From positions 155,372,001 through 155,436,000 of the forward strand of contig JBITNC010000001.1 in NCBI GenBank assembly GCA_050084985.1: a stretch of 64,000 nt of DNA, read 5' to 3'. Below, in pieces: positions 8,811-33,657 of the stretch; position 1 is the stretch's first letter, and every line of letters begins with the position of its first letter. Below the pieces are notes generated by a model. That model was not told the origin of the DNA. It saw nothing but the letters and a program-made list of their open reading frames with translations, and did no database searches. The position numbers and the translations under genes are program-made. Origin of the DNA: Nageia nagi (lineage: Eukaryota > Plantae > Pinophyta).

Positions 8811-8818
8811 TATAAATA
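8811..8818 (+). promoter_or_regulatory. TATA box of the LTR-borne gene
   Basis: TATAAATA ~150 bp upstream of ATG 8964; equivalents near 32240(-), 48434 and 55121. Confidence 0.6.
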
Positions 8819-8963
8819 AAAACCTAGGGACTCCATTTCTCAAATTCAAATCACATTCCTCTTCCACTTTTGCGTGGAGGCAAGCCAATCCAACATTGGG
8901 TGGCTCCACCACTTGGAAACCCTCGCATCACCTTTGAGAGACTTTGTTGCAAGCCTAAACACC

Positions 8964-11900: not shown

Positions 11901-14900
11901 GTATACATGTCATTAAGGGATTGATCTGTCATTATGTTGCACGGTGAACCCATGTCCATGATTTAATAAAGAGACAAAAATGGCTTGAGCAATCGTCAAC
12001 ATAAACATTTGGTCAAATAATGTATGAGTGATTTTGTAAATAAATCAAGGTTTAAACGAATATTAGTAATGATAAGAGATTTAATTGGCTTAGTGTTGAA
12101 GGATTTAATGAGGACGTGGAATAGGAATGGTGAGGTTACTTTTGAGGCTCGAAACGGAGCAATAGCGGGGTGGGTGTACAGGAAATAGAGCATTCTGGTT
12201 TGTTCCTAGGGTTGTATGGAGGAATTGTTACAATGATTCGATCAAAATTACATCCTACCCCTGGTTCAAGCATTCATGAATCGCAGAAGTGAACACCAAA
12301 AAATTTTATCAAGGTTGATTACACCGGGTTCTTGACCAATCTTGCCATGTGAGTGCTAAAGTAGCTAGCATCATTATTAAACTCATATGGGATCGCCTAG
12401 TTCATTCCTAGAATATCGAGTGTTAAACTAAATAAAAATAAAAATTAGGTCTGAAATTTAGGGTTCTGGTTGATAAGAAAAGCGGATGCGATACAGTGAC
12501 ACAATCGCTCATTAGTTATCATCCATAGGCACCATTCACAAATTCTACCTCAATTCATACCTGGTTTACATGTTGTTTCACGGAAAGTAGAGGGCCCCAG
12601 CAAAAGGAGAATTGACATTGATCGACAAAGGGACCTATGCCATTTGGAGATGCTACCCCAAATGGAAGCTTGAGAGGAGATGGAATAGTTTTACCATGAA
12701 AAATAATAGATGGGAGTTTGAGATCTACAAGGAGCTCAAAGGAGAAATCACAGTGGCTAGGATCTCTAACTTAGCCCAAGACGCATTGAAGAAGCATGAG
12801 GACTTCTTCCTCCATCACCAACACTATTCCTATATCAGAATTCATGGGTTAGCCACGCAGCCGTACCAATGGCCAAGATTCGTGAGCAACAGATTGCTTC
12901 TTATGGAGATGATGAGGCAGTTGCCCTATATACATAAATAGGTGTGGAAAAAGAAATCGGCTACTTCAAATTTGCCGATTATAGTAGGTGAATACCAGTG
13001 TAAGTCTTGGGTGGACGTTGACACTATGAAGGAAGAGTTGGCGAGATTTAACTTCAAGAAGATGCTTGCTGCCGACCATTATGAACCTAACCACAGGATG
13101 CACTAGTTCTTCATGAAGGAAAGGAAAAAAGCATATGAGCACAAACCACTTGGAGAAGAGGAACCTTTCCGAAATGTGAGTAACGAGGTAGAGATGAGAA
13201 AGATTCGTGAAAAGATGCATGAAGATGCCCATGATCAGCAACACCTTGTTGAGGCCACTATCAACAAGAGATTGTCACGACAGGAGGGAAGAAGACCTCA
13301 AGAGTCCACTTCTAGGGTCACCCAGTTTCCTCCCACAGTTGAAGCGCCAATTGGACAATATGCGTTAATGCGTGGCAAGAACCTAGTAGAATGGGTAGTA
13401 CAACAAGTAAGGGACACCACTGATTAGCACAACATGAGAGAGCTAGAGCGGGTGGCCACTGACAAGGTAGTGAGGTGTGTCAAGAACAGAGAGAAGGATC
13501 CCTCCCCACCGTCCAGACCACCTAGAGGAGCAGTGGCAGATCCGTCACCAATCGTTCCACCATCTGGATCTTCATCATCCAGCCCCATGTACAGACTTGA
13601 TGAAAATCAAGAGGAGGGAGAAGTAGGAGAGTCAGAAGGTGAGCAAGAAGCGAATGTCATGCAGCATGACGACATCCCAAATACACAGCAAGAAGACGGA
13701 TCCTTAGAGAAAATAAAGGTAGTCCAGAAACCCGCGGCTTCCGACCATCCATAGAGAAGGGTAAGGGACCAGCCTCAGAGTCAGCACAGAGAAGAGCCTA
13801 GTTGAAGAGAACTTCACAATCATGGACAATAGAGACCTTGAAGGAGCTTGGTGAAGAAGAGGCAAGACCCTTGAAAAGGGACAAGAAAAGTACCACCAGT
13901 GTTCAGGAAGAAGTTGTTGAGACTCATCAGCCATCACCTACAGATGAATGGGGAGTTAATATGGAGGAGTGTTTGGATGTGTTTAACATGGACATCGGGA
14001 GGAGTTTGGAGTGAGAGAAGAGAATGATCATATTGGAGAAAGCCCAACTCGCCCGAGTAAGACCCAGACTTATGTGCATCTGGCCAAGAACGCGATTCAC
14101 ATCAAGACTATAATCGCGGACAAAGAGAATCCCCAACGACCTGAAGACCTTAGGCAGGCCAACCAAATCATCAATACAGATCCTATTGGTTTGGCTGGTA
14201 GGAAACATGCAATCATCTCCAACACTGAGGCAATTACCAAAGATGGGATGATGAAAAAAAAGGAGATTAAAAGCCTCAGGAAGGAGTTAGTTGCACAGAA
14301 GAAATTGACTAGAGAATTAGAGTTAGCTAAGGTGCCCATGGAGGAGCTTCGAAAGATAAAACCACTTGAGGGCATGATTACAGTGAAACAGGACGAAGTG
14401 GATGAGGTCTTGGTAATGGTACAATAGTTCATTGGTGCACTGCAAAGGGTAGTATTTGAAGAGCAGAAGCTGAAAGACATTGTGGTGGAGAGAGATAGCT
14501 TTCTTAGGATTTTGGCCTCCCGAAGGCCCATGATCATGAAATTCGAGATGACACAGGACCGGAGGGCTGAAGATGTGAAGTTTTGTGAAGAGTACTGGTT
14601 CTGCTTGGGTGTCATCAACCAGATAGCCACACGTTTCCAAGAAGTGCAGAAGGAGGTCGAAAAGCTCGATGGCAAGGCTAACACCAGCCTCAAGCAGACA
14701 GAGTTCTAGGTCAAGTTTATTGATGATGATGCCACCATTCGAGATAAAGAACTGGTAGTGGCGGAAGTGAGGCACTTTCTTCACAGCTTGATCATGACTG
14801 ACAACATCAACACCTATCAGATTGGGAGTCATTTGAAGCACTTGCTTAAAGCTCGCACTTGTAAGGATGATATGTAGAGGATGGTGGACACAATTGGGCG

Positions 14901-15020
14901 ATGCATTGCTAGGAATATGCCGAAGCTATCAAAGATGTTGCATGGGTTAGAACTCACGGTAAAATTCTTGGATGAAGATTTTGAGGGACGCGTTGAGGTA
15001 TTGGGCCCACATGCACCTTA
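8964..15020 (+). pseudogene. LTR-borne accessory gene, family A (~1,070 codons), split by solo LTR 9667-12495
   Basis: MTTSKGN...IGDTDW.DVDP...MDFS...FYLNSYLVY...YIRIHG...PRFVSNRLLLMEMMRQL, acidic/Ser-Pro middle, coiled-coil C-terminus; several stops and frameshifts. Confidence 0.8.
9667..12495 (+). mobile_element. Solo LTR, 2,829 bp, with Tekay/Del-like termini
   Basis: TGTCACGACCC...GATACA with perfect 5-bp TSD GTGAC (9662-9666 and 12496-12500); TATAAATA near 10502; host ORF resumes on removal. Confidence 0.9.
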
Positions 15021-16073
15021 GTCGTAATTTTCCTAGTTTTATGTTATTTTCAAGAAAATGCATTTATTTTATGAAATACTTTTATTATATTTGATATTTA
15101 ATTCCCAAGTATGTGATGGATGAGGATTTGCTCCCACAAACTTGGAAGGCATTTTGTAATGCCATGTGGCAAGCTTTAATTGAACCATTTGTTACTTCTT
15201 GGATTTTGAAATTAGGGTTAGGGCAACATTTAGGGTTGCTAGAAAACTATTTATAGCCCATTTCGGCTCATTTGTAATGGATTAGACATTTTTGCACTTG
15301 TAAGAGACTTAAATTTTACTTCCAATTAAGCAAGTTTGCTCCATTTGCTAATATGGTATTATTCCAAGTAATTGAATAGTGAATGTTTTCATTAATGGAA
15401 TTATGAACACGTGTTGAAACCTTTGGTGAATGTCATTGTTATTTTGTGTTGTTCAAGTTTGCTTGGTTCATCTCGTAAACCTTGTATTAAGGTGGATGAG
15501 ATAATTCATTGAATATCCTTAGAAGTGATCATTGAGCAAAATATGATGTGCAATAGTTTATGGTTTGCATATTAGACTTGTGTTGTCTGGGATGACTTCC
15601 TTTATAATGCTTAGCACAAGAACTTCACTCCCTTGTTGATGATTGACTTGCATTCTACTCTACAACTACCCTTGCCTACAACTTCACGCTCTTTTCACTA
15701 GCTCATTCATGTGGTTCACTAGTGATAAAGATAAGGAGTGCATGGAACTTGCATAAAGACCGAAGGAAGTAGATTCCATTCCCTGCACCAGTCAATGAGA
15801 CCATATGCACTTGTGTCCCACTCATATACCATCGTCTAATCTGCTTTTTTCCTTTTATTTTTCACTTTTTTGTGCGACTTTCGCAACCTCCTTTTCTTTT
15901 CCTTTTTAAAAACAACCATCTCTAGGGAAAGGGACCCTTCGGGTCCTTGGTTAACAAATACTATTTGAGTAGGGGTAGGGGTCACGCCCTACCACTCAGG
16001 TGTTGGTGTCTTCCCGCAAGCCTTGCAAGTTCATTTGCCCATTAGCAAGGTAGGAAAGAAAAAGCCCCCAACA

Positions 16074-19000
16074 CTTGCAAGAGCAAAACCATCTAAAGAG
16101 CAAACTCAAGGCGAGAAGGTGATCAAGGAAAACCCCCATGCTTCGTCTTATGACCTCGTTGAAGATTTGAAAAATACTAATTTAGAAGCTTCAATGTACA
16201 ATGTAATTCAGATGGATAAAGAATACAAACCTATCAAGAGGGAGTTGAGCAAATTAGACTCCAAAGTTAAGCAGAAATGGGTGCCCAAGGCCACTAAGGC
16301 ATCCGAACCTATAGAGGCAAAGACCCTATCCGTGTACAAAGACAAAGAAAAGGAGTCACCACCATTTCTTTTAACACTGAGGATTGCGAGCAAGAACCTG
16401 CATAATTGCATGGTGGACTCCGGTGTAGCTGGAAATGTCATGCCACACAAGATCTGCAAACAACTGAACTTTCCCCATCACAAATAGTCCTAAGAAGGTT
16501 ACTCAGCTGGCTCAGACTCAAGTCAAGGTGATCAGAATGCTTCCAAACATGCATTCTCAAGTAGCTTCCGAACCTCAAGTGCAACAATACACTGATATCC
16601 AAGTAGTGGACATTCTGGATTCATATGGGATCCTGCTGAGCAAAGATTGGTCAAAGAAACTCAACGGATACATCTCCACTGACTTTACCCATATGTGGCT
16701 TCCATGGAAGGGGCAACCGAACCAGATCAGAATAAGCAACGAGCCCTACCTCAAAGAGATGATCATGGATTACAATAATTTGAACAAGGTTCACTTTGCA
16801 CAAGTAGAGCTGGGAGTATACAATATGGACATCATTGTTGACAAAGGTGGTCCCCATGTGAAAGTGGAAGAATATCATCAGACTCCTTTGTATTTTAATC
16901 ATCTGAAGAAAGACACTTGCTCAAACAATTTGAAACGGACAAGACAAGAAGCTCTAGGTCGAGAGCCTCTTAGGAAATGTCTGACTGGATGAAGCGCGAA
17001 GCTGAAAAATAGTTGGACGAGCTTGAGGAAGCTGGGTACTTGTTGCCCGAAAATCAAGAACCTAAGAAGAAGGATGCTGGTGTTGGCATCCCGGAGAAAG
17101 AAATATCAAAGAATATGGACAAACATCACCAGTTGTTGAGAGGAGAGAGTTCACATCCTCCTCCTGCTGATAGCTCTAAAGATGAACGTGTTGGTCCTCC
17201 TAAAGAAGACCAATTTTGGGTCCTCAAGTTCTATGGCTCTAAGTGCAGACTTAGAAGCGAGGGTAGTCTCGAGCAACAAAATCCAAAAGGAAAGAGGTAT
17301 CAGGCCTTGTTTCGGCTTCAGTATCCCTGCACATGCAATTCAACCGTATACGAAGCGTGAAGTACCTGAAAATAATTGGAGATTCAAAGCTGGTGGTGAA
17401 TCAGATTCGAAATATTTATTTTGTAAGGATCCAAGGCTGAAACGATACCGGATCCAAGCATGGGATCTCCTGAAAGATCTTGAATCTTTTGAGATCCAAG
17501 TTGTTTTGCAAAGACAGAACTCAATGACTGATTCATTAGTCATTGCTGCAAGCACACTTCAACCCTTGGAAAACACTCAGTTGCGGAGGTTTACTGTGGA
17601 GATTGTTCTAGTGCCTTCAGTTTTTGACAACATTGCAAATCTTCAAGTTTTCCAAGATAAGCAGCAAATTCAAGATTTTGTCAAGTTTTGGAGTGTTTAC
17701 CTCCCAAGTGATTGAAGAAGATTCATCCAACTCTACGGGTAGAATGCCAAAGTCCTGATAGAAGAGAAACTGGATGATGGAGTCATGTAGTTGAAGAAAA
17801 ACAAAATCCCAAGAGTAATCGTGACCCTGGAACGCTTGTTTGATCACGATGTGATCCGCAACGAAGCTGCTGTGCAGATTGATGCTGAAGATAGTAAAGT
17901 AGTCTACTTGGGAACGGAGTCTGAAACTAGGAACATCCTCTTCGAAAAATCTTGTAATGGTGTTGAAGGAGAGAAAATCATTCAAGTTATACAGGAGTTC
18001 ATTGACACCATAGCATGGAGGTATGAGCATCTTAAGACATATGATCCTGATATCATCACTCATACCATTCCCCTTAAGCCTAATATGAAGCCTTTCAAAC
18101 AGAAGCAAAGGGTGGTTAACCCCATCCTGGAGCCTTTAATTATTCAAGAAGTTTAGAAAATGGTTGAGTCCAAGATTATTTTTCCAATGAGACACTCATC
18201 CTGGGTCGTGAATATAGTTCCAATCCATAAGAAGAATGGAGAGATAAAGGTATGTATTGATTTCAGAGATCTCAACCAAGCTTTGGAGAAGGACGATTAC
18301 TCTTTGCCCTCCCTGGACGAAGTCTTACAAATTGTAAATGGTTCACAAATGATGTCCTTTTTGGATGGTTATTCAGGTTACAATCAAATTTTGGTTGATG
18401 AAAAGGATAAGTTGAAGATAGCCTTCGCTATGAAGTGGGGAACATTTGCATACAACCGAATGCCCTTCAGTTTGATAAATGCTAGAGCTACGTTCCAGAG
18501 AGCCATGGATTTTGCCTTCCAAGGTTTGATCGGGAAGTTCATTGTGATATACATGGATGATTTAACAGTGTTCTCAAAAGATGGATCTTCCCATGTAGAG
18601 GATTTGAGGAGAATTTTTGAAAGATGTGGAAAATTTGGAATTTCCTTGAATCCCAAGAAGTGTATTTTTGGCACTTCCAAAGGGCGATTGTTAGGTCATA
18701 TTATTTCCGAGCATGGGATCTCCATCGATCCCGAGAGGGTGAATGCCATTCAAAAGATTCCATACCCATCCAGTGTTAAGGAATCACAATCATTCATGGG
18801 CCAAATTAACTTTGTTCGCAAGTTCATATCAAGCTTCGTGGAAATTGCCAAACCCATTAATGATATGCTGAAGAAAGATGATAAGATCCTGTGGGATGAG
18901 GAAGCATGCAGAGCTTTTAAAAACATCAAAAATGTCATTTCTAGTGCTCTTGTTCTCACCAGTCTCGACTATAAACAACCATTTTATTTGTACTCTTTTG

Positions 19001-20269
19001 CATCTAAACATTCCTTAGCCGAAGTCCTCACTCACAGGATCGAAGAGGAGAATCATGAGAAGCCCATTGCATTTATGAGTGCCCCATTCCAAGATGTTGC
19101 TTTGAGATATCCTCCAATTGATAAACAAGCATATGCCTTGGTTAGAGTCGTCAAGAAATTCAGGCATTATATTCTCAAAAGTCCAATCACTGCTATCGTG
19201 CATAATGCAGCTGTGAAGAATTTGCCCGTAAAGCATGAGCTGGGTGAAAAATGAGGAAATTGGGTGACTACCCTCCAAGAGTACGATCTCACCATTCAAC
19301 CAATGAATATTGTATGTGGCCAAGGACTTTCTCGAACACTCGCCTTCTACGGAAATGTTGTTGATTCAAAATGTGAAGACGAGGCGAGAGATGTTGATAT
19401 CATGATGTGTAAATACGCACTTGAAAAAGGTTCCTTGTATGAGGATATTACCAGATACTGTACTTCTGGCTCATATCCCCGACATTTCAATCAAGCCGAG
19501 AGAAGAGCTCTGAGACACAAATCTACTAAGTTCATGATAAAGGCCAATAAGTTGTTTCGCAAGAACCACGAAGGTATCTTTCTAAAGTGCCTCGAAGAGA
19601 ACCAGATTGCAAAAGTGTTGAAACAATTTCATGATCAAGACGGTGGAACTGGTCATGCCCCAGGCCCTATGTTAGCCCATCAAATTCTGAGAGCTTGGTT
19701 TTACTGGTCAACTATTTTCAAACATGCCTACAATTACACAAAGAAGTGCCATGTTTGCCAAACTTCAGCTGGAAGAGAGAAGCATTCCAATCTACCCCTC
19801 CATCATGTGCTTGAAGCTAAACCTTTTGCCAAGTGGGGTTTAGATTTTATTGGGGTCATCCATCCCAATTCTTCCAAAAGACACAGATTCATCCTGACAG
19901 CTACCGATTATTGCACTAGGTGGACCGAAGCCAAAGCCTGCAAAAACACCACTTCGAAGGTTGTCATAAACTTCTTAGAAGAATGCATAATTGCGAGATT
20001 TGGCATCCCCTATAGCCTGGTGCGATAATGGACCACGTTTCATTTTTGCGAAGTTGACAGAATGGGCATATGATTACAGCATCAGTATAAGTTACTCTTC
20101 AAATTAATTATCCTCAAGGCAGCGGAGTAGCTGAGTCGACCAATAGAAATCTGGTAATAATGATCAAGAAGCTTCTGGCGGACAATCTGGTAACATTGGG
20201 ACTGACGATGTGGTTGAAGAAAGGCTGGCAAATTTGCTCCAGTTAGAAGAGAAAAGAGAACAAGCTTTC
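16074..20269 (+). pseudogene. pol: Tat-type Ty3/gypsy pol: protease, additional RNase H, RT, RNase H, integrase (degenerate)
   Basis: LHNCMVDSG (PR ~16400); WVLKFYGS...CTCNSTVYEA (aRH ~17215-17540); VCIDFRDLN, LDGYSGYNQI, YMDD (RT); HHCC and WGLDFIG...TDYCTRWTEA (INT). Confidence 0.93.
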
Positions 20270-20539
20270 TGTTGTGCCCACACAACACACCCCAAAATAC
20301 AAGATTTTGAGGACCCTATTTTGGCAAAGGCAATGAGGTGCATTGCCTTGAGATTGGCTTTTGGCAACAGATAGTTCATTCTGAAGAGTGCAAACATGAT
20401 ATCAGGGAGCGATTCAAGAAGATCTTGCGACAAAGACCCTGAAGAGTATCAAAGTATCCAATCACCGATTTTGTAGCCAAAGAGCCAGGATCTGAGAGAT
20501 AGCACCAGAGCACGGAATTTTGGGTCTAGAGTGCAATCA

Positions 20540-21240
20540 GTGCACATGGGGTCGGTTTTGCAAAGTTTGAGCTCACAAATGCCAAGTGTGGCAAAAGGGC
20601 GTGTTTTTGCAGGATTCAAGCACAAAGGTGTCCTGGTGACGAAAATGGGCGTTTTTGTCAATTTTGAGTCCGGATACAATGAATATGGCTTTTGACCCCG
20701 AAAAGCTGGAAAGGGCAAGTATGATAGAAAATGAGCGTTTTTGCCAATTTTGAGCCTGGAAGTGGTCAACAAGGCAAGAATGTGCATTTTTGCACAATTT
20801 GGACCCGAAAGGCTCGAAAATGGTAAAAAAAGTAAAGTTGAGCCCAGAATGCTCGAAAAGTGCAATTTTGACAGGGAATGCACATAAATGTTCGATTTTA
20901 ACCGAAAATGTAAAGTTTGAGCTTTGAAGTGCCAAAAATGTCGAAAATGATTGTTTTTCAGAGATTAAGCTTGATTTTGACCGTAAATGCCTGAAATGAC
21001 CGTTTTTCAGAGTTTAAGCTCGAAATGTTGGGAATGATCGGAATTGCACAGTTTGAGTTCGGAATACCAAGAATGATCGCAATTGCACAGTTTGAGCCCG
21101 AAAATGATGGAAAATGTGGATTTGGTAAAGTTCAAGCTCAAAAATGGCGGATAGTGGTTCGGAATGCACAAGGTGTGTCCAAGAGCACAGTTTGAGGATT
21201 TTAGTGATATCAAAGTCCGAGTTTTGACACATAGCTCCCA
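20540..21240. repeat. Short-period degenerate repeats (GCACAGTTTGAGCCCG, AAATG.CGAAAATG) with phased A/T tracts
   Basis: Motifs recur every ~20-45 bp; same motifs at 46010-46640. Confidence 0.7.
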
Positions 21241-21329
21241 ATAATGGCAAAATATGAAAAATTTTCAAGAGACAAATCCAAATGGTGTCGAAAATCAAGT
21301 CTAAGAGCATCATTGGAGAGATAAGGTTA

Positions 21330-22740
21330 TTTCTGACATAATTAGGACTTGAAATTTTTTATTTTGCCCAAGTTTTGAGCCATAAAATCCTAGGCGCAAG
21401 TTTCCAAGTGATTGGAAATCCATAGACTTGCATTTTGGTGCCTAACTTGAAGGAGAAAAATGGATTTTGACCAAAAGACCAAACCAAAGGCATAAATTGA
21501 TGGAAAAAGGGGTTTCAAGCATATTTAAGTCTTAAATTTTTCAAATTTGATCAAGTTTTGAGGCCCAAAAAGCTAGGCACATGTTTTCAGCTGTATGGAA
21601 ATCCAATCAAAAGGTTTTTGGTGCCTAGCATGAAAGGAAAATATAAATTTTGCAAAAAATCAATTTTAAGTGCTTGGGGACAAGGAGAAAGTGATTTTGA
21701 GCACATTTAGGTCTTGAAAAATGCAAATTTGATCAAGTTTTGGGCACTTAAAGGGCAGGTGCAGGTTTTCAAGTTTTTCCAAATCCAATGGAGTGAAAAA
21801 TGGTGCCTAAAATGAAAATATTGACAAATTTTAGTCAAAAATCAAGTTTGAGGTGTTCATTAAGTGAAATTTGGCATTTTGAACACATTTAGGTCTTGGA
21901 AAAATCAATTTTGAGCATATTTAAGCACCCTAAAGGCTAGGCGCAGGTTTGCAAAGCTATGGAAATCCAGTGGGATGAATTTTGGCACCTAGCATGAGGG
22001 AAAAAGATAAATTTTGTCCAAAACTCAAGTTTGAAGGTTTGTAAGCAAGGAAAAGGGCATTTCAAGAAGGTTTACGTCTACAAAATTTCACTTTTGAGCA
22101 AGGGAAATGCCCCAAAACCATAGGCGCATGTTTTCATGCCAATGGAATCCCAATGAAGTGTTTTTTGGCACCTAAGTCAAGGAGGAAGATGGATTTTTGA
22201 TCAAAAACCATATTTGAAGGCATAAATGGATAAAAGACCCCATTCTAAGCACATTTAAACTTGTAAATTTTCATTTTTGAGCAAATTTGGGAGCACAAAT
22301 ATATGGGCGCAGGTTTTCATATCATGCAAGATCCATAGTGCTGAAAACTAGTGCCTAAGTTGGGGAGAATTGACAAATTTTGATCAAAATTCATGTTTGA
22401 GCACTTCATTACAAGGAAAATGCCATTTTGAACATATTTAATACTTCAAATTTTCAATTTTGAGCACATACAAGGCACCAAAAAGCTAGGCGCAGTTTTT
22501 TCCAATTTTTCCAAATCCATACAAGTGAAAACTAGTGCCTAATTTGAGGAGGAACATCAAATTTTGCTCAAAAATCAAAAATTTTGTCTTCATTACATGG
22601 AAAATGGAATTCTAAGCAACTTTAAACTTTGGAATTTTTGAATTTGAGCAACTTAAAGGGCTAAAAAATCGAGGAGGCATTTTTCATTCCTATGGAAATT
22701 TCACTATTTTCTATCAAAAGAAATCCATAGACATGAAATG
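21330..22740. repeat. Tandem array of 7-8 units of 182-183 bp
   Basis: GG(C/T)(G/A)CA anchors at 21393, 21576, 21758, 21940, 22123, 22306, 22489. Confidence 0.9.
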
Positions 22741-24168
22741 GAAAAAATTGCCAAAATCTCAAATCCTTCATAAAACCTCCTAAAAAGCTCCAAAACCTCT
22801 CAAAATTTGTCAGTACCTTGTAATCCCATCCTCCATCCATGAGCTCAAATCCATTTTTTAAAATTTTTCTAAATTTCGAACCCCCCCTATCTTTTTCGAA
22901 AAATAAACCAAAAACTCCACTTTTTCAAAAAATTCTCTCAGAATCCCTTGAAAATTTGCCACAATGATCACATCACAGGCAAATCTAGATTCAAAAAAGG
23001 ACGGAGCTTAAAAGACTGTCAGAAGGATCTAGAACGAGGATTTGAAGCTCCAATTTTTGACAAATTGATGCAAAACGCTTCGAAATGCATGCCAAAGAGC
23101 ATCAATTTTTGTAAATATTTTATTTTTTAGCATATTTTAGTGGGATGAGATTGTTCTCCCACTAAAACAATATTGTAATCTCAATTTAGCATTCAAATTA
23201 GCATTTTAAAGTTTTTTTTAGGAATTAGAGCAACACCCTCAAATTTTGACCTAAAAAGTCTATAAATAGACCATAGGAGGTCACATTTTGAAGGAGAATG
23301 TTGTAGTCTAAGAAATTGAAAATTTTTTCAAAATTGAAAATTTTTGCAATTGAGGAGCAAATTGATGTAGTTGTGCAAAACTCTTTTGCAAACATAATAC
23401 AAATGGCTACAAGTTGATTCAAAGTGTGTTTTCATCTATCGGAGTGGTGGATTGATCTTTTAAGGACAATTTTTGTAACCCAAGTATTTGTGTGCCTTCT
23501 TTTTGAAAACTTTCGAGTTTTAGGAGAATTTGTTGTAAACTTTCCAAAATGTCTGAATTGTCTTGAATTGTTGCTAATTCATCACTTGCTTGTTAAATGC
23601 TTAGTATTTGAAATCGACTTTCTCTTAAGACATCTTCTTAGACCTCTTGTTCAAAACTATTCAACTTCACTTGCGCTTAGTCCACTTGGTTGCATTGATC
23701 CTATTCACAGAGTACCGACAATCAGTTCCACTTCTCGCTCATCTTTGGCATGATTGGACAATAGTCATTCATTTCAAGGACTTGGTTGAATTGAACAAGA
23801 TTTCTTAACCGATCCGAGAGAAAGAACATTTAGACAATGCTGCATTATGATTACCTCTTTGAAGTCTAGCCAAAATTCGACCTCATTCTCACTTTTTCTT
23901 TACTTTATTTTACACTTTCTTTAAAACTTAGGGCAACTTTCGAACTATTGTAAGATAACACACATCAGTCCCTACACAAAACGTGAGTTAACAGTTATTA
24001 CCTCTACTACACCACTTAGCTGATTTCCAAACAAGACCTACAAATTTAAAGCTCGTATTAACGACACGAGCTTTCCGATAGAAACCTTGGGGTATCAATC
24101 CTTACAAGAGGAGTTCAGTAACGCATTCTCACCTACATGTTGGGTCACTTTCCCGTCTTGATCGTATG

Positions 24169-24376
24169 GAATTTTGAACAAGACAATCGAGTATTGATGT
24201 GGGATAAGGCACACAAAGACAAAGGGAAACATGCTAAGTTTGATAAACTGTGGTTAGGGCCATTTCTCATTGAGGACCTTGCAGGCCAAAATTCTTTCAA
24301 GCTGAAGAAACTCACTAGTGAGGTATTGCCATTGCCTGTTAATGGTAAACACCTCAAGCATTATTTCCAAGCTTGA
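24169..24376 (+). pseudogene. pol: Integrase C-terminus (GPY/F region) of the same pol
   Basis: VLMWDK...GKHAKFDKLWLGPF...VNGKHLKHYFQA-stop. Confidence 0.9.
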
Positions 24377-24682
24377 AAAGGCCTTTTGCATTACCTTGTA
24401 CATAGTCGTCGTGTCTGCATTTTGTCTGCATTATGACTATTGCATTGTGTTGTTATCTTTCGGTGTTTGTTCCTATGTTAGTTTTCATTGTTGTTTTGTT
24501 TTTTTTAGCTATTGTTTTGCCTGCACAACACCCCCCAAAATTTTGCATTTTGAGGAACCTTACAAAATAGAACATAAAGGCATGGAATAAATTTTGTTCA
24601 AGGAAATGCATGCATCTTACTCTAGCAAGAAGAAACATGGCAAAATTTGCATGAAACAAGTCAAAAATTGTCCTCCTACCTT

Positions 24683-26172
24683 AGGCGCATGCATTGAGGG
24701 ACATGCTTTTTGCACGTCCCCTAAAATGTGTTCCCTCCTTCATGCTGCATATTTCATGATGAGTCTTGCATTTTTGGTCTCAAAACAACATTTTCCATGT
24801 CTATCATGCTGCAAAAATTGCATTTACTCCATTGCATCTCTTTTGAGGGGTCATTCTAGTCGATTTTGAAAGAAAATATGCATTTTTCCCCTAGGTGCAG
24901 GCTTTGAGGGACATGCTTTGGGACCAAGGCCCATAGAAGTCCCCATACTTAGAAAATTTTTCAAGTTGTGAAGAAAAAGGAAAGAGTGCATGTTTTGAGG
25001 GACATGCTTTTGCATGCCCCCTAAACGGTGCACCTAGGCTAGAGAAGAGGCTTAGTCATTTTTTGAGCAAATTATAAAAGAACCCAAATGCATGTTTTGA
25101 GGGACATGCTTTTGCATGTTCCCTCAATGATGCGCCCAACTTCGAGGTGTGAAAATTGGCTAACTGTTGGACCCAAGCGCTGACAAGTGTGATCACATGC
25201 ATTCGACCTTCATTTGCAATCATATAGTGACACTTGTCCAGCCACAGGAAGGCCTATAAAAGGAAAGTCAGCCTCAGTATTCAGTTTGGATGGTCAAATT
25301 TGGAACCTTTTGCGAAGCTTAGTCACGAAAGCACGTCCCCCAAATCGTGTTCCCTATTCTGTAGTGCATTTTTCAAGGTCATTTTCCATTACTTTAAGAA
25401 TTCATTGCATCGGGAGGTGTGCCATAGCCTAGGCGCATGGTTTCTGGTGTGTGTTTAGGCACTCACCTAAATGGGTGCACCCATTCCAAGACGTCTTGGT
25501 CCAGAAGAAATTTTGACTAAGTATAGAATTCAACTAGGTGAAGGCCAAGCGCATGCTTTCAGGTGCATGCTTTTGCACCCATCTCAAAAGGTGCGACCAA
25601 GATACAAAGCTTTCAAGTATAATGGGAATTGACAAAGGCCTTTTGTCCATCAAGGTTGATAGGTGCATGTATCCCAGGACATGCTTTTCCACTCATCCAA
25701 AACTATGCGCCCATCATCCTGGTTCCACCATTCAACCTTACTATTAACCAACCAAAGGGTGACATGTGGCAAGTGTGAAGACTATAATTATCAAGTCACC
25801 CCTAAATCATTTCACCACTCCATTGTAGCTTTCATTGAGCGCTCCAGTCACATCATTTCAAGGACATGCTTGAGCACTCATCAAAATCGATGCGCCAAGG
25901 AGGAATAAGGGATCAAGAACGTGCCTATGCTACTAGTTTGCCATTTTTGGCTAAGGCATTTCATTTTTCTCTTCAATTGAACATGAAAATTTGAGGCGCA
26001 TGTTTTGCAGCACATGCTTAACCACAAATCCAAATCTATGTGCCCCTATGTGAAGTGATGAATTGACCTTCCCAAGTGGAAATTGTGGCTCTGAAATTGA
26101 CTAAGTGACCCAAGGGCCCAGTCGCATGTTTTTCAAGCAATGAAAAAGCACACATCCAAATCCATGCACCCT
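24683..26172. repeat. Family-B array of ~50-bp inverted-repeat units GGCGCATGTTTTGAGGGACATGC-TTTT-GCATGTCCC...GCGCC
   Basis: About 10 units, decaying toward the ORF; equivalents at 1020-1860(-), 45510-45620 and 54420-55010. Confidence 0.85.
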
Positions 26173-26450
26173 AGGATCAAAGACCAAAATTGTTTAAGTG
26201 TGAGAAGCAAGGAGTTGAAAAGTCAAGAAGACAAGTGGCAGATCTGCATCATGCCATGCACGAACCCTCCATGCAATAAAAGAGGGCATCCCTAGTCCAT
26301 TTATGTAGAACGTTTTGTAGTCCAAACCTACACATCTAGTCATTCTTCTATTGCACCCTCTGATGCATCTAGCTTGGTACTTAGTCATTTTTGGGGTGTT
26401 CTCAGCCATTTTTTGGTCCTTTTTTGCACTTTTTTTTTTAGAATTCAAAG

Positions 26451-29400
26451 ATGACTTCTAAAGTAGGGCAACCCCATCAAAGGCCAAAAAAACCCAAGGG
26501 CAACTTTTTGAAAAGCATGTCACCAAAGACCAGATGAAAGGCTCTTGAGGGAGAGCCAGATAGAATTTCAAAAAGAGAGAAACCAGAGCTACCTGAAGCC
26601 AAATTCAAGGGGAGATACATCTTCGTTGGAGACATAGACTAGGGAAATGTTGACCCATCTATACCATAGCCTCCATTGCCTCCATCAACAAGGAGGATTT
26701 ATCAGATGAACTTATCCATTCTTGTGGATTGTTCAACGCCACCATGATGCCTTTTGCGGTTCAATTTCTTGACTTGTGCTACAAGGTAGCCAAGCGATGC
26801 AGATATGATAAGAGAGTTCTCTTGGACACTAAAGGAAATGTAATTATGGATTTCTCTCCTAATGGGATTGAAGCAGCCTTTGGCTAGAAAAGATATGGAG
26901 ATGACTACACAATAGTCAATTCAAAGGAGTTCCATGATTCCATTACCCAACCTGGAGATTACACTAGAACATGGCTGCATGAGGATTACCAGAGCATCCA
27001 GGGCCAAAGATTGGTTTGCGCCTATAGGGAGGAATTCCTTCCTAGAGTGGCTAAGTTGATCACTTTATTGTCCAAGGTCACAAGTCAGGAGGACGATTCC
27101 AAGTATAGGAAGGAGGTCACTGGGTTTATTGCAATGATTAGCTCAGGTAGAGCTATCAGATGGAGCAAGGTTATCAGTCTTGCACCACCAGTTGGCTTAC
27201 TTTGGCTCTTCCAAGAGATTCTATATGAACTCCTATCTTTTGTACCTATTGTTGCCCGGCAAGCTCAAATCAAGACAGCTTGCGGATGAAAGGTATTTGG
27301 GTCAAAAAGGCATTCCTGTGTGGTGGGTTTACCCGAAGTGGTGGTATCACAACAAATTTCAGCATTTCTATGAGATGAATGATTGGTGGGAGTATTCCAT
27401 CTACAAAGACATCAAAAGGGAATCGATGGTCAAGATGATTTCAAATTCAGCCATTCAAGCCATCAGTGTACATGTAGATTTCTACCTACAGTATGTTGAT
27501 CATACACATATCAAAGTTTATGGCACCGAAGAGCAACCCCTGCTCCTGCCCAGATATGCCAGTGACAGACTCATTCTCATGGAATTTGCTAGATAGTTAT
27601 TGTTTTTGAAGGAATGAGTATAGAGAAAGAAGGACGCAACCATTAACTTGCCTATCTCAATTACAAGTTATGTTTGCCAGACATGGGTTGAGGCCAACAA
27701 TATGAAGGAGCTGCAGTAGTACGTCTTCTTCAAGGAGATGGCAGCTAGGAATTATGATCCCAAAGGTGTGATTGCTCATTTCTACAACACCGCATTCCAC
27801 AAACCGATCGCTTATCAGCATAAATCTTTAGGGAATGCAGAGAAGTACTGAAATGTGCAGGATGAGGAAGAGATAGCAAGGATAGATGCTCTTTTGAGCA
27901 GAAATAAGGCTCCCCTTCAGGTAGAAAAAACACCTCAAAGACCCAGAATTGTGAAGGCAAGATCCAAAGAGGTCCCACTAAGGATCAAAATGTCTCCTCC
28001 TTCTGCAAGTGTTGCGCCTTCACAGGGTAAGACACCCTTGCTTCCCATCGGGAAAAGGCAAGGAACTTCAAGGGAGCACACCTCAAGACCTAGCAAACGC
28101 AGTGTGTGGTGATGGTTGACCTGAGAGATGTTGGCTATCGCACTGTCCCCTTGGATATGTTGGAGGAAGCTTGTGTCGATGATTTACCCACCAAAGAAGT
28201 CCCTTCTAGACCCACTTGTCCTTCTGGATGTAGGGAGAAAGTTCCCCCATTGCAACCAAGTTCCAGTTCTTCTAAGCATTCCACTTCTTTCGATGAAGAA
28301 AATGATGAAGAACCCAACCATACAATAGAAGACTCCGATGAAGAGACAAAGAGCCAGGAAGGTGATGAGGAGAGCCGCAGTGAAGAAGAAGATGATAATG
28401 ATAATACAGATGATGTTGATAACAAAGAGTACCCTAGCCAAGACAACGTAGTTGTAGGTGCTTCTGTACCTGATGAGACGGAGATTGAGATGCTCCCAGA
28501 TGACGATGAGATTGTACACGTTGGGACCTATGATGATGAGGTCCAAATCATCAGATTGAAGTGTACCAAAAGGTGGGTGCCTCCAAGCCCTCTCTTGCCG
28601 AACATAGAAAGAGGTCACCCTCGTCTTCCCAGAAGACCTCTATGAAGAGGACCAGCCATGAGAGATCCCCTCAACCATGGAACAAAGGCATATCAATCGG
28701 TGGCAATGGCGGAGATGAAGAATACAAAGGGGAGACTAAAGAACAGAAGAAGAAGAGAAAGTAGGATGAACACCAAGGTAAGGAGATTGCCCTTGTCCAG
28801 ACCACTTCGACGAAGGAAGTCAAGAAGGTTAGTAGAGGCCGATTGCTAGTACAGAGGTTCCCTCCCCAGCCAGCAACTGTACATTCGAACTTTGATCTAG
28901 ATGCCTGCCTTAGAGCCCTCAGCATGAGTACGGCTCATGATGAAGAGATAGATCAGGACTTGAGATCTGAGGATGAAGAAGAGGAGCTCTCTCATGGTGA
29001 GAAAGTTAGAAGAATTGATACATTTGTCTCCACCACCCGGAAAGAGATCTCCATCAATCACTGCTATTCAAAGGATAGACATCCTCAAAGGCCCAAGGAT
29101 TGCATGATTGAGACGTTCAAGATGCTCGTGAAGTTGAGATTGACAGCCCGCAAGCACATTGTGACCCAAAATGTTGCAGTCATGGAACAGGAAGGCTATG
29201 AAGCCAAAAAGGATATGAAAAGGTTGAAAAAGGAACTCACAACCAGCAGGAAAATCATTAAGGAGTTCCAGACCATTAGCACCACCCCTATCAATCTAAA
29301 GAAGCAAGCCTCCTTCCATGAAGGATGGGAGCTGATGAAGGACTAGCTCAAGAAGGAGATGATGGAAACTATTGAGAAGTTGTCTTCTCAAATATATAGC

Positions 29401-29997
29401 CTTCTCGAGGAAGGAGTCGAAATCCGAGAACTCAAGTCCCAAATCCTAGCACACCTCAAGAAGCTGGATGGTTACCTCCCTAACGTCACCCATCTGCAGC
29501 AGGTTTTCGTTGACAAACCCGAAAAGTTGGTCTACTGCCACGTGTTTATGTATCAACACGATTGGCTAAAACATGCACTTGAGAAGTGCAACGCCGTTTT
29601 GAAGGTGAGAATCCCCTTGAGAAAGGAAGTTGAGGAGCAAATGAGCAGATATGTATACCATCTCAGATTCCAGAGGGATGATAACAGCATACCGAGAAAT
29701 GAGGCAGCATTGGCAGAGGCCCAAAATTTGATCCAAGAGCATCTAGACGTCAAGGATGTCAATTTGTTAAAGGCAGGGCATCCCATCGTCCATGAAAGAC
29801 AAATGGTCATTTGGAGATATCAGATGCAGGCTATGTCCAAGCAGATTGGGGACTATTTTGGGCAAAACAGCAGCATCGTTGGTATGATCTCTAGGGGAAT
29901 GCGGAAAACCACGACGTTCTTGGAGGAGATCATTGAGTCGTATGGTCTTACCAGCGAGGAGTGGAACTCCACCGATACCAGATCAGATCTGGCCTAG
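26451..29997 (+). pseudogene. LTR-borne accessory gene, family B (~1,180 codons)
   Basis: MTSKV...VGD.D...MDFSP...FYMNSYL.YLLL...YPKWW...WEYSIYKDI...LPRYASDRLILMEFAR; D/E-rich middle; coiled-coil C-terminus; stops and frameshifts. Confidence 0.85.
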
Positions 29998-30848
29998 GTC
30001 TGATCCACTCACAAATTCTGTCTGCAATAATCTTTCTTTTGTTTAATGCATATTTAATGGTGGTGGTTTTTGTTACACTCGGACTTTATTTGCCTTAATT
30101 GGTGTAGGAATGAGGTTTTGCTCCTGCTAGATCAGATATGTCAAACTCATTAATGATTCTGACCGATGCAGGGATGAAGTTTTGCTCCCACCGGTTCAGA
30201 ATCTAAACATTTATTGCATATTTGATTTTATTTTGCATAGGTTAATGATAGATTAAATGCATTTTGGTTGTGGCATTTATATTTGTCAGCTTTTAAGTGC
30301 CACTTGCATCGTTTTCTATAAACAATCTAATCTTGTATCGGTATGAGTGTTGCGTATGTGCATGCCATATCAGATTTGATGCCTTTAGGGTAACACTTCT
30401 AGTGGCCTATTTATACCCCATTAAGGCCATTTAGAAGGGGATTTTGCATAATGTTGATTGCATGAGACTATTGCATCTGCTAAAACTAAGGATTTTTGGC
30501 ATATGATTGCATGTACGAGATTTTCTGCATATTGTTGAATTGCATAAGGATTTGCTACATAAGGGATTCTTTGCATATCATGGATACATATTGTTGTATC
30601 TCTGTTTCATTTTGAATATCATATGGAGACTATTGCAATCAAGAAAGGAATGCCTCTATTCATGCTATGGAATATAATTGTGAGTTTATTTCTTTCTGGA
30701 ATATTGCTGCAAAGTTAATACTATGAAGATTATCATTTGTGGGACCATGCATATTGCTTTGGTGTTTGAATAGTTTTCCTCTTAAAAGTGCATATTGAAT
30801 ATTTGTTGAAGTAGTTTAAGTTGTTCATTGCATGGTTTGCATGCAAGT

Positions 30849-32023
30849 AAATTGGAGGTAGCCGATTTCTTCTACCATACCTGCTCGTGTAGAAAGGCCA
30901 ATTGCCTCATCATCTCCATTAATAGCATCCTGTTACTCACGAACCTTGGCAATTGATAAGGCTGGACAGCTGATCCATGTATACGAATATAGGAATAGTG
31001 TTGGTGATGGAGGAAGAAATCCCCATGCTTCTTCAAAGCATCTTGGGCTGAATCGGAGATCCTAGCAACCATGACCTCTCCCTTAAGTTCTTTGTATATT
31101 TCATACTCCCATCCATCATTTTTCATTACAAAACTATCCCATCTCCTTTCCAACTTCCATTTGGGGTAGCACTTCCAAATGGGGTATGTCCCCTTTTCTA
31201 TCCAAGCCGTCTCACCCTGAGCTATAGCTCTATACTTGTCATGAAGCCACATGTACACAAGATATGAATTGAGATAGAATTTACGAGTGGTACCTAAGGA
31301 CAACAACTAATCAGCTATGGAGTCACTCAACACCTTGCTCCACCTAATCCTTCTCCCTCTGGCGATCTCTAGGATGAACCCAAAGAACTCTTTCCTAAAC
31401 TTTGAGGCAGCTTCCTTCCAAAGGATTCTGGACAACAAAAGAATCATCAATTCCACTGCAGGATAGAAGTTGGAGCGAGGAGCATTGATAAGTGCATTTC
31501 CCTTCAATCCGTGATGCTCCTCCAACATCCAGCTCTTGATAGCTATGGTTGCCCTGGGGGTCTCCTAGTAACAAGCTAATGATCTAGCCTCGCTATACTC
31601 GACTTCTCCTTCATAGGTCTACTGAAATGTCGATTTGATGGCGTCCACGCTGAAGTCCATTATGATGTCTCCTTTGATACCTCGAAGGACTCTCTCCTCT
31701 TTTTGCCAATGATGGCCAACCTCCATACACACTTCAGGAAATGGAGTTGTGAATGGGACTAATGTGCAAGTGGAGAGTCTGGAGAAGAAGACGATATCCT
31801 GCTTCAAGTCAATGATAGGAAGACCATGAGTGCTCTCCCTCATCTATGTAGGGTCAATGTTTTGCCAATCAGTATCTCCAATGGTTGAAAAACTGTTTCT
31901 CGAGAATTTAGCCCCTTGGAGAAGGGCTTGTTGTCTCTCACGAATGGAGATGACACAATCCTGTTTCAACCGCTCGAGATCCCTAGCGAAGTTCGAAGCC
32001 AAATTACCCTTAGAAGAAGTCAT
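30849..32023 (-). pseudogene. N-terminal ~390 codons of the family A accessory gene
   Basis: MTSSKGNLASNFARDLERLK...IGDTDW...KFYLNSYLVY...LPRFVSNRMLLMEMMRQL; in-frame stops only. Confidence 0.85.
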
Positions 32024-33657
32024 AATGTTCTCATTGGCAATGTGGCTCCTCAAGAGTGTTGCGTGGGTTTCCAGGTGAAGATGACACCCACGTTGGAGGG
32101 TCTTGCCTCCCAAGTGCTTGCGCAAGCCTTAAGGTGGATAAATGATTATGTTTGAGCACAAAAATATTTGCTACTATCTTGGCGCAAGAGTAGAAGAGGA
32201 GCAAATTTTGAGTTTAAAAAAATGAGGTCCTCAAGCTTGTATATATAGCCCATTTGGCTTCCAATTTGCCCTAGTCAACTAGGGTAACTGACATAACTCA
32301 TCATAACCCTCCACCTAGCCGACCTCGAGATGTGTGTCGCCCAAAACTCATACAAAGTTGCCTATGCCCAAATGTTTGGGTTTTAATGCTCAACCTGGCT
32401 TGGCGCATGGAAAAAAAAAGACAAAAAAGTGACTTTTCGAACCATGCGCCAGCCCTGGGAGCTTGCATGCTTCCAACGTTGGGTGTCCTACCTTCATGTT
32501 TGCTTGCCTTGATCGCCTAACTCACCCGATGACCTGATTTTTCCTTAATCCTGGTCTTCTAGTCTATTGGACTTGTCAATTTTGGCGTTTCATCTCAATC
32601 CGAACAACCTGTGGGCTTGGCGCATGCTTCCAAAAGTCAAGTTTGTGACTTTTTGAGGCATGAGCCAGTCTTGCCTATCCATCCAGCCTGGTCGCATAGT
32701 TTTTGTCTTTTTGAAGCATGCGCCAGCCTCTAGTTGGCCTATTTTTCGAAATCTAACTTTCAAGTGCTCATGCCTTAACCAAATTTTCATATATCTCGAA
32801 TCTTTGAGGTTCCCCAGGCTTGGCGCATGTCTCAAAAAGTCAAGATTTTGTCTTTTGAGACCATGCGCAAGCCCCTCTGGGTATACTTGAGTTAATTTTG
32901 AGTTTTCCGAGTCCAAAACTTGTCAAATTTTCACCTTTGCTCAAACTGACAGCCTTCCTAGGCTTGGCGCATGGTTCAAAAAGACATGATTTTGTCTTTT
33001 TGAAGCATGCACCAACCTCTTGGGTGGCTCATGTTCATTTTCCAACCCCCGAACTTGCTCAATTTGCCTTTTTGACCAAATTGCATGATTCAAAAAGACA
33101 AGATTTTGTCTTTTCAAACCATGCGCCAGCCCTATAGTGCCTTTGACTTAGATTTTTCATGTTCACTTTTGCTCCATTCCGCTCCCTATGTTTGGCGCAT
33201 GCCCAGGAAAGACAAGATTTTGTCTCTAGGAGGCATGCACTAGGCTTGCAAGTGCCCAAATTCCGTCTTTGACCCTTTCCTTCTGTTTAGACGACCCCCA
33301 AGCCCAATCGCATGGTTCACAAAGACAAGTTTTTGTCTTTTGAAACCACACACCAACCCTTGGAGAGGCCCAATTTGCTTTGATCAGGCTACGACTCTTC
33401 CTAAACTCCCTAGTTCACCTAAGATCATCTTAAATCCTTCCTAGACTTAGCCATTTTTAGAGATTTTGAAATTCCTATCTTGACATGACTAACCCTAGAC
33501 GAAGGAAGAGGCTTGAACTGTAAGGAGTTGTCCATGAATCTGGGTCTTTGAGATGCAACTTGGGTGGGATTGATGATGAGAAAACAAAGTATATACATTG
33601 ACGCATTGAGGGTCCCCAAAATCGCAGGATTTTGGGGGATGTGTTTTAGTCACAACA
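30849..33657 (-). mobile_element. Giant LTR family A, copy A2 (5' part only)
   Basis: Minus-strand start TGTTGTGACTAAAAC; 8 palindromes at 32400-33360; colinear with A1. Confidence 0.85.

Follow-up and report, generated by a model that had tools for sequence, protein, structure and literature searches.

The 64,000-nucleotide stretch of Nageia nagi DNA analysed here, which we call the window, holds five copies of a long extra open reading frame (ORF), spread over three families (A, B and C) and decayed in all five cases. Each copy sits in a unit of 5.8-8 kb with sharp TGTTG...CAACA ends. The copy under study, B1, is a gene of about 3.5 kb that apparently lies inside a long terminal repeat (LTR); its frame is not open: the pieces counted contain no fewer than four frame changes and nine in-frame stops. 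The features of the window are as follows.

982..2040, minus strand: third B-family LTR, truncated start
4854..5371, plus strand: LTR-end remnant in front of gag
5383..5399, plus strand: candidate primer-binding site, 11 bp beyond the LTR end, perhaps resembling a tRNA-Asn site
5806..7471, plus strand: gag of the TatII-like host element (Retrotrans_gag E 1.7e-5, Ty3_capsid E 7e-4)
7472..16073, plus strand: A1 unit, solo-LTR-like, with whole ORF; interrupts the host gag-pol
8964-14985, plus strand: A1 ORF, split by a nested TG...CA insertion
9667-12495, no strand assigned: the nested TG...CA insertion, unrelated, with an exact 5-bp target duplication
16074..20269, plus strand: pol of the TatII-like host element (protease motif, by eye; RT, RNase H, integrase)
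about 17180-17600, plus strand: archaeal-type RNase H remnant, between protease and RT
20270..24164, plus strand: ORF-less C-like LTR unit, 3.9 kb, inserted into integrase coding sequence, with an uncertain right end (24147-24164)
24167..24376, plus strand: C-terminal end of integrase (by eye, no Pfam match), 140 bp before the B1 unit
24513..30848, plus strand: B1 unit, interpreted as an LTR of family B, with sharp 5' terminus at 24513
24570..26400, plus strand: degenerate repeats upstream of the B1 ORF, with a B-specific 9-mer
25255..25261, plus strand: TATA-like box shared by three of three B copies, 1.2 kb ahead of the ORF
26451..29997, plus strand: B1 decayed extra ORF
about 26520-27900, plus strand: B1 N-domain
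about 27900-28900, plus strand: B1 acidic Ser/Pro linker
28921-29997, plus strand: B1 helical C-domain
30407..30415, plus strand: TATA-like box, 410 bp past the stop, common to A, C and metagenome copies
30849..33657, minus strand: A2 unit, truncated, with repeats and just the N-domain; its LTR starts at 33657
32023 to 30849, minus strand: A2 ORF, N-domain only
45126..45748, plus strand: B2 LTR, first part, resuming at 54338
45749..54337, plus strand: C unit, solo-LTR-like, with whole ORF, inserted in the B2 LTR at that LTR's TATA-like box
49294-53069, plus strand: C ORF
50584..51118, no strand assigned: MITE-like insertion interrupting the C ORF, with short inverted ends and a duplication of about 10 bp
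54338..58190, plus strand: remainder of the B2 LTR, carrying its ORF
about 55290-58190, plus strand: B2 ORF, C-domain incomplete
58698..62504, plus strand: unit D, ORF-less A-like LTR, 3.8 kb

The encoded protein consists of an N-domain of about 470 residues, an acidic Ser/Pro linker and a helical C-domain of about 330 residues. The first-pass annotation of this DNA had described a tripartite protein in five copies, and all five are indeed present, but the three parts can be seen together only in A1, B1 and C, A2 keeping the N-domain only and B2 being interrupted within the C-domain. The N-domain motifs it listed occur in the given order in a collinear alignment, although two of them have decayed in B1, and this domain is about 30-49% identical between families. 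The three C-terminal peptides that it quoted, one each for A, B and C, were recovered in the copies; what is conserved there, however, is the entire domain of about 330 residues and not merely a block preceding a coiled coil. This domain is long and helical, with heptad character, and aligns between families nearly without gaps, with 18-30% of residues identical (BLASTP E 3e-7 to 7e-35, the best E being 0.29 in a reversed-sequence control between different proteins). The cross-family tblastn E-values, together with the codon-position pattern described below, exclude chance similarity. In agreement with the same annotation, no RT or DDE family was matched by Pfam on any ORF copy, and the window copies show no membrane segment, their highest hydropathy over 19 residues being 1.31; a crude scan of 14 segments from the window and the metagenome loci gave no transmembrane segment either (19-residue hydropathy at most 1.31). 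An intron reading of the AT-rich insert in the C ORF was dropped and a MITE-like insertion preferred; this insertion is missing from loci L007 and L010.

The ORF is retained in at least four families, and all 11 metagenome loci that were fetched match these elements. A single-sequence search with a B1 piece among longer proteins yielded none from 310 candidates, and viral contigs no relatives among 205 pattern matches. Long-term purifying selection, as had been proposed, is supported by low dN/dS and by the distribution of differences, which within the ORF are enriched at third codon positions, an excess not found in flanking non-coding controls. Of 61 pairs, 48 could be estimated, and the dN/dS of every one of them, between 0.05 and 0.62, stays below 1; the other 13 have saturated synonymous sites. 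Of the two comparisons suggested at the outset, A1 versus A2 gave 0.19 and 0.10, and B1 versus B2 gave 0.15, 0.22, 0.42 and 0.11 along the protein, the linker accounting for the 0.42 and the domains for the values of 0.11-0.22. Quartet counts of shared and private changes depend on single-base columns and carry no weight here.

The ORF-bearing units are, with high probability, LTRs. They have TG...CA termini with a short inverted repeat and occur as solo insertions. The left ends of such units are sharp at the identical base in 10 cases, with a majority base of 0.77 inside and 0.46 outside, and the corresponding values for 10 right ends are 0.83 and 0.46. Profiles of the window ends match three (left) and six (right) of the 11 independent metagenome loci, and the right terminus lies 1.09-1.34 kb past the stop in five of five loci and in both window copies that extend far enough. 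In A1 and C the ORF lies between both unit termini, in sense relative to gag-pol, and both units break otherwise continuous sequence in the manner of solo LTRs: the two gag-pol sides of A1 stay in frame only with a 5-bp duplication (not 4 or 6), and C has five bases on each side within the B2 LTR, where the empty site has five. Target-site duplications are poor, two of five bases matching in A1 and two of five in C, and none is convincing for D or for the unit at 20270. No direct repeat links the two ends of a unit, and a complete element flanked on both sides by ORF-bearing LTRs was not seen; the flank of 24513 is T-rich and shows no polypurine tract, and a primer-site-like stretch and gag follow only one of the 10 right ends. 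If the units are LTRs, both ends of an element would receive the gene on reverse transcription, and every solo LTR would retain one. We rejected a reversed orientation, in which the ORF would be antisense like that of TatIII, because on the same strand gag comes after the right end.

The host is a TatII-like Ty3/gypsy retrotransposon, likely of gymnosperm type. Two pieces within 17140-17712 match archaeal RNase HI weakly (NF041175, E 0.0019; NF041306, E 0.013; both far below cut-offs) and nothing relevant in Pfam or the PDB, and an archaeal-type RNase H between protease and RT is the TatI/TatII order (PMC6317226). Metagenome locus L001 matches the B1 ORF and its 3' region (73% over 2244 bp), and its B-ORF unit ends in sequence that is 82% identical over 525 bp to the LTR end preceding gag; it forms a bridge between the B-ORF unit and the LTR end preceding the TatII-like gag; the left remnant (4854-5371) and the right unit (24513-30848) do not overlap and are joined through this locus alone. 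The B1 unit, cut at 30848 where A2 adjoins it tail to tail, likely served the gag-pol element on its left as 3' LTR, but it may be an insertion and not the host element's own 3' LTR. Among the 11 loci, no gag, protease or integrase matches to the window's gag and pol were found. Tat lineage II has been reported without an extra ORF (PMC4408406), and in the supplement of PMC6317226 sense extra ORFs are given 5' in 23% and 3' in 26% of 27 TatII elements, near-equal counts that a gene within the LTR predicts; that source gives these ORFs no CDD domain and, in the passages covered, no LTR-internal placement.

TATA-like boxes on both sides of the ORF suggest a U3 location. Apart from the one 1.2 kb ahead of the ORF in B, they lie 154-225 bp before the ORF in four of four A copies, and 176-410 bp past the stop in A, B and C; the pattern past the stop was set post hoc and without a shuffle control. 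The box at 30407..30415 would be the main LTR promoter at the U3/R border, and we find it fairly probable that the ORF has its own promoter ahead of it and the genomic-RNA promoter behind. The B-specific 9-mer occurs in 12 copies over three B segments and in none of A or C; the family-specific 9-mers number 16, 12 and 11 copies against shuffle maxima of 4, 3 and 6, an amplification that is not unique to a VANC-like mechanism, and such elements commonly contain tandem repeats (PMC11963269). Two ORF-less LTR units still keep their repeats, which counts against the explanation favoured below.

Searches with Pfam at E up to 10 gave no match to the plant mobile domain (PMD), DUF1985, Transposase_28, Transposase_32 or ATHILA in 12 window pieces and 18 further proteins, NCBIfam gave none for four ORF proteins, and sequence searches of the PDB gave chance matches only. 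Two AlphaFold2 models reached mean pLDDT of 47.3 and 43.8, with only a 30-residue helix-hairpin-helix at 65-78 in both; Foldseek found no match at E 0.001 and VIA-align, across 48161 chains, gave neither model a Z that reached 5, absences that are uninformative because the models lie below a pLDDT of 50. In the ESM Atlas, all clusters listed for the intact homologue P0059 are from land plants, with a likeness of 0.93 to a PMD-named cluster (179 of 256 features), 0.92 to DUF1985 (166) and 0.90 to a PF10536-bearing one (163), a weak match given a recognition value of 2227, under the 2300 line; a fragment of the window's C copy retrieved bacterial hypothetical clusters only. PMD-C and the DUF1985 of VANC are structural homologues (bioRxiv 2024.09.27.615353; PMC13547354). 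By this weak lead, the N-domain is probably a remote PMD/DUF1985 relative with that fold. The label 'uncharacterised' given earlier calls for qualification: PMD plus coiled-coil extra ORFs of Tat elements and sense ORFs of TatII are on record (PMC4408406, PMC6317226), and the N-domain has the probable kinship just given. Hydropathy in P0059 reaches 1.71 at one amphipathic helix.

The explanation we favour, at slightly less than even confidence, is that of a conserved accessory gene in the U3 of a 6-8 kb TatII-like LTR, whose product would be a PMD/DUF1985-type anti-silencing DNA-binding protein. That it is an element-encoded nuclear regulator, as first proposed, is plausible, and its putative role is likely that of a family-specific DNA-binding factor, anti-silencing or activating: the protein would recognise repeated motifs of its own family and, once bound, would keep the LTR active against host silencing. 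By analogy, and more tentatively, the N-domain may bind specific sequences, the C-domain oligomerise and the acidic linker serve as an effector arm, the protein acting in trans on ORF-less LTRs. Rather doubtful is the narrower proposal of a VANC-like family-specific anti-silencing gene in the U3 of a gymnosperm TatII, beside its own putative binding sites, with the solo LTR as a promoter-gene-target cassette.

An LTR gene could instead encode a structural or trafficking accessory, such as a Gag or particle partner, a factor for RNA export or integration targeting, or an env-like protein. The sense orientation, as in Athila env-like ORFs, and the long C-domain with its heptads would suit such a product, and PMC4408406 notes coiled coils in env proteins while leaving the function of PMD-coiled-coil proteins open; we nevertheless consider it unlikely, given that the window copies lack a membrane segment, that the closest named Atlas clusters are chromatin-protein families and that amplified family-specific motifs suit a DNA-binding partner. 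Just as unlikely, in our estimate, is a regulatory LTR gene whose N-domain has an unrelated, undescribed fold and resembles PMD/DUF1985 in the short helix-hairpin-helix only. The empty Pfam, NCBIfam and PDB sequence searches, the confinement of pLDDT 65-78 to those 30 residues and the sub-threshold Atlas recognition agree with it, but all Atlas clusters listed for P0059 are from land plants, with both named families in one structurally related group, and PMD, alone or with a coiled coil, occurs in the related Tat lineages III-V (PMC4408406).

The decayed or missing target duplications, the lack of a polypurine tract before B1 and of a two-LTR element would also fit TGTTG...CAACA units that are separate mobile units or internally deleted non-autonomous elements, the ORF being an ordinary internal extra ORF or the unit's mobility protein. 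We regard this as improbable, because the unit ends share no direct repeat, the right end is the sequence that precedes the primer site and gag, the left ends are sharp at one base in 10 cases, and Pfam gave no transposase or RT family for the ORF. Host genes with PMD-type domains exist (PMC5418596), and a captured fragment of one might be carried passively; the selection data contradict this, dN/dS being as low as reported above in every estimable pair, and the retention in at least four families and the match of all 11 loci to these elements make it scarcely credible.

The accessory gene proposed here has several counterparts. With TatII (PMC6317226; PMC4408406) the window elements share the archaeal-type RNase H position (through weak matches here), large size and sense extra ORFs, whereas TatII as described in PMC4408406 lacks the extra ORF that they carry. 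A tRNA-Asp or tRNA-Asn primer site beside the 5' LTR and target duplications of 4 or 5 bp are further marks of TatII, for which the window offers a candidate site at 5383-5399 and 5-bp spacing at A1 and C with only two matching bases in each. The extra ORFs found in Tat lineages III-V (TatIII, Ogre), which encode a plant mobile domain and coiled coil (PMC4408406), have the same plan of N-domain followed by coiled coil and likely belong to the same domain superfamily; however, they are internal (antisense and 3' in III and V, sense and 5' in IV) and score with PF10536, whereas the window ORF is sense, apparently LTR-internal and below PF10536 at E 10. The anti-silencing protein VANC (DUF1985, PF09331; VANDAL MuDR), which causes loss of DNA methylation, likewise combines a conserved domain with a variable region. 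The motifs it binds are specific to its family and have been amplified in tandem repeats (PMC5735166), and short family-specific motifs are similarly amplified in the non-coding DNA of the window families; but VANC comes from dicot DNA transposons, and the window ORF comes from an LTR retrotransposon and has no PF09331 match. Retand TRP28 (PF04195, antisense) and Athila ORF1/Transposase_32 (PF03078, PF20167, env-like), from the Ogre-Tat-Athila group, are also accessory ORFs beside tandem repeats, for which regulatory or env-like roles have been proposed, yet they lie between pol and the 3' LTR, and the window ORF has no Pfam match or membrane segment. Accessory genes in or overlapping the U3 of an LTR are known from MMTV (sag) and HIV (nef), but these are animal retroviruses with far shorter ORFs and LTRs and unrelated proteins.

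In the titles, abstract openings and passages that our literature search covered, no LTR-internal ORF was found for plant elements, and the apparent position of the ORF inside the LTR, missed in the first-pass annotation, is new here and its most unusual feature. Extra ORFs of plant retrotransposons have been described from the internal region, and a gene within the LTR alters the annotation of such elements; at 6-8 kb, the LTRs are longer than the limits commonly set in searches, and LTR-LTR recombination would leave the gene in place. If the PMD/DUF1985 link is true, the superfamily extends to a Tat lineage reported without it, which bears on the origin of host PMD genes from retrotransposons, left open in PMC5418596, and a protein-motif pairing could underlie element persistence in giant, heavily methylated genomes. 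Should the VANC-like proposal also be true, no plant retrotransposon would have furnished such a system before, and this branch of the PMD/VANC superfamily would be older than those described from flowering plants.

Further observations concern the contigs. One contig joint, 24378 to 24463, gives a weak hint that the integrase end and the T-rich flank are linked in other copies. Among sequencing runs no RNA set was listed as carrying the family, which is uninformative about expression. Locus L010 contains an RT unrelated to the window's pol, and the family is abundant in three contig sets.

Motif scans and tblastn with the B1 region (26451–29997) recovered five copies of the ORF in the window, namely A1, A2, B1, B2 and C, from LTR families A, B and C, as the first-pass annotation had reported. 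Aligned with stops read as X, 12 in-frame pieces are collinear over ~480 columns, and the N-terminal motifs described earlier occur in order across them. A nearly gap-free alignment of the C-terminal domain (~330 aa) covers A, B, C and also a fourth family, which comes from a metagenome locus, with identities of 18–30% between families, far above reversed controls; this fourth family (L009, 1–4179) has ~30% identity to B in the domain and the same right end. The middle is indeed acidic and rich in Ser/Pro; in one B1 piece, D+E make up 26% of residues and S+P+T 25%. The window copies have no membrane segment, in agreement with the annotation. Its tripartite protein, claimed for five copies, holds for three, where all parts are found, and not for the remaining two. 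Every copy is decayed; in B1 the reading frame changes at least four times and is broken by nine stops. The ORF observation is real, and the protein has been under selection.

The long-term purifying selection proposed by the annotation was borne out by pairwise Nei-Gojobori dN/dS, for which stop and gap codons were left out and pairs of fewer than 60 codons dropped. The ratio could be estimated in 48 of 61 pairs, ranging from 0.05 to 0.62, synonymous sites being saturated in the other 13. Between B1 and B2 it was 0.15 (0.09–0.24) and 0.22 (0.14–0.34) for the N-domain, 0.42 (0.27–0.68) for the linker and 0.11 (0.06–0.20) for the C-domain, and between A1 and A2, 0.19 and 0.10; in one pair, the linkers of C and the metagenome locus L010 (0.62), the interval extends up to 1. 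Differences between B1 and B2 by codon position were 28/20/58, against 50/52/50 and 34/34/33 in non-coding controls. Purifying selection acted on the protein during replication of the families.

Profile searches returned 51 fragments and four longer proteins, one of these already found, and the 10 homologues looked up have neither a name nor a Pfam family. Two intact homologues, P0058 and P0059, are open, collinear across the N-domain and 27–28% identical in the core. The two AlphaFold models were poor, save for one helix-hairpin-helix, which we take to resemble PMD and Transposase_32 motifs. In the ESM Atlas, P0059, whose recognition value is below the threshold, fell among land-plant clusters: 0.93 to a cluster named plant mobile domain (no common Pfam), 0.92 to DUF1985 clusters (DUF1985 in 100% of members) and 0.90 to a PF10536 cluster (18% of members). 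A 190-aa window fragment matched bacterial hypothetical clusters only. The PMD/DUF1985 likeness is a lead, not membership. The protein, called uncharacterised in the annotation, stays blank in Pfam, NCBIfam and PDB searches, but as a member of a superfamily it is probably of a known type.

The ORFs lie in LTR-like units with TGTTG...CAACA ends, whose termini, together with the features of the host gag-pol element, are as follows.

Termini, host genes and repeats.
7472, 20270, 24513, 45126, 45749, 58698: conserved left terminus
2040, 33657: conserved left terminus, reversed
5371, 16073, 54337, 62504: conserved right terminus
from 5806: gag of the host element
after gag, in order: protease motif, RNase HI-like remnant, RT, RNase H, integrase
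24167–24376: integrase end, recognised by eye
~15220, 53230, and L002, L004, L007, L011: telomere-like repeats, after the ORF

Terminus profiles built from the window matched 3 (left) and 6 (right) of 11 metagenome loci that had been selected by similarity at the protein level, and at both termini base agreement was 0.77–0.83 inside and 0.46 outside (10 cases each). The left end lies 1.5–3.5 kb before the ORF start and the right end 1.09–1.34 kb after the stop, consistently in all seven cases running far enough. The A1 unit (7472–16073) lies between gag and pol of the host element, whose two flanks stay in frame with a duplication of 5 bp but not with one of 4 or 6. The C unit (45749–54337) interrupts the B2 unit, whose halves resume across it; C is flanked by five bases on each side and the empty site has five. 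The units' own two ends show no direct repeat. Moreover, the metagenome locus L001 is 73% identical to B1 over 2244 bp of C-domain and 3′ region and then follows the 525 bp ending at 5371 (82%), where a primer-site-like stretch and gag come next. Since unit termini, insertions and the L001 bridge agree in this, we read the right end as an LTR end and the left end as an outer terminus, with the ORF between them; that is, the ORF apparently lies inside the LTR, as judged from single units and the bridge. ORF-less relatives (20270–24164 and 58698–62504) have both flanking parts in common with ORF-bearing units. In several copies, the first 18 LTR bases (e.g. 45126–45143) make up a short inverted repeat resembling a hairpin.

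Against the LTR reading count the target duplications of A1 and C, with 2 of 5 bases matching in each, unlike the unrelated nested insertion at 9667–12495, which keeps a perfect 5-bp duplication. No two-LTR element was seen. When the left remnant was compared directly to the B1 3′ region, similarity stayed at shuffle level, because their surviving parts do not overlap. Ahead of B1 there is no polypurine tract, so that this unit may have inserted there rather than being the 3′ LTR of the host element. A T-rich stretch lies instead ahead of B1 (24440–24512) and of the ORF-less unit D (58638–58700), the two being 72% similar over 121 nt, a span that takes in the LTR start; it could be a conserved region where second-strand synthesis is primed in a non-canonical way, or else reflect a target preference.

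TATA-like boxes lie 154–225 bp upstream of the ORF in 4/4 A copies and 170 bp upstream of B2, with a further one 1.2 kb upstream in all three B copies. A second box follows 176–410 bp past the stop, ~760–1030 bp from the right end; its pattern, picked after inspection and without shuffle control, matches 11 of 12 segments, and in 10 of them it falls at the homologous position. From boxes on both sides we infer that the ORF is located in U3 with its own promoter, an R-U5 below 1 kb being workable. Upstream repeats hold 9-mers specific to each family. The A 9-mer occurs 16 times in A and is absent from B and C, the B 9-mer occurs 12 times in B and is absent from A and C, and the C 9-mer has 11 copies; the highest counts in shuffled sequence were 4, 3 and 6, respectively. 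TTAGGG/TTTAGGG repeats, resembling telobox promoter elements, stand directly ahead of the post-ORF box in A and C LTRs.

A single TatII-like gag-pol element spans the left part of the window, its RNase HI-like remnant giving weak archaeal RNase HI matches; in the portions consulted, PMC6317226 and PMC13477047 give this gene order as defining TatI/TatII, and TatII as a gymnosperm lineage. Sense extra ORFs occur in TatII at the 5′ position in 23% and at the 3′ position in 26% of elements (PMC6317226, supplement file 5), near-equal shares that are the symmetry expected if the gene sits in both LTRs; no domain is listed for them (supplement file 4). The consulted parts of PMC4408406 report none for Tat lineage II, and those of PMC7264820 assign extra ORFs to the internal region, whereas ours is apparently LTR-internal, a position not found for plant elements in the portions of literature searched. 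We regard the ORF as a variant of the Tat accessory-ORF type, its apparent LTR-internal position being the new aspect.

According to the parts consulted, PMD-C and the VANC DUF1985 domain are structural homologues (bioRxiv 2024.09.27.615353; PMC13547354), VANC proteins strip silencing and bind motifs that differ by family and are amplified in tandem (PMC5735166), Tat lineages III–V carry PMD or PMD plus coiled-coil ORFs of unknown function (PMC4408406), and Gypsy encodes PMD-A (PMC5418596). By this analogy, the likeliest reading is a putative family-specific DNA-binding factor produced from U3, which would act on its own LTR, keep that LTR transcribed and, in trans, also keep ORF-less LTRs transcribed.

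Elements here often nest in one another: in L001 an A unit begins ~30 bp past a B LTR end, and the C unit entered the B2 LTR right at its TATA-like box (45735–45749). The 9667–12495 insertion is 2.8 kb, solo-LTR-like and younger than the units described. An AT-rich MITE-like insertion (50584–51118), presumably Mutator-like, has short inverted ends and a ~10-bp duplication. The ORF-less unit end at 24000–24233 is far commoner than the B unit in public contigs, and at 24163 contigs diverge from the window sequence and run into a possible primer site; we propose that a numerous family lacks the ORF and differs in its right end. A further inverted repeat pair lies at 80–860 and 41567–42468. These LTRs also occur in host genes, since in L011 (3367–3950) a C-family LTR end adjoins, by eye, apparent exons of a plant sulfite-oxidase-type gene.
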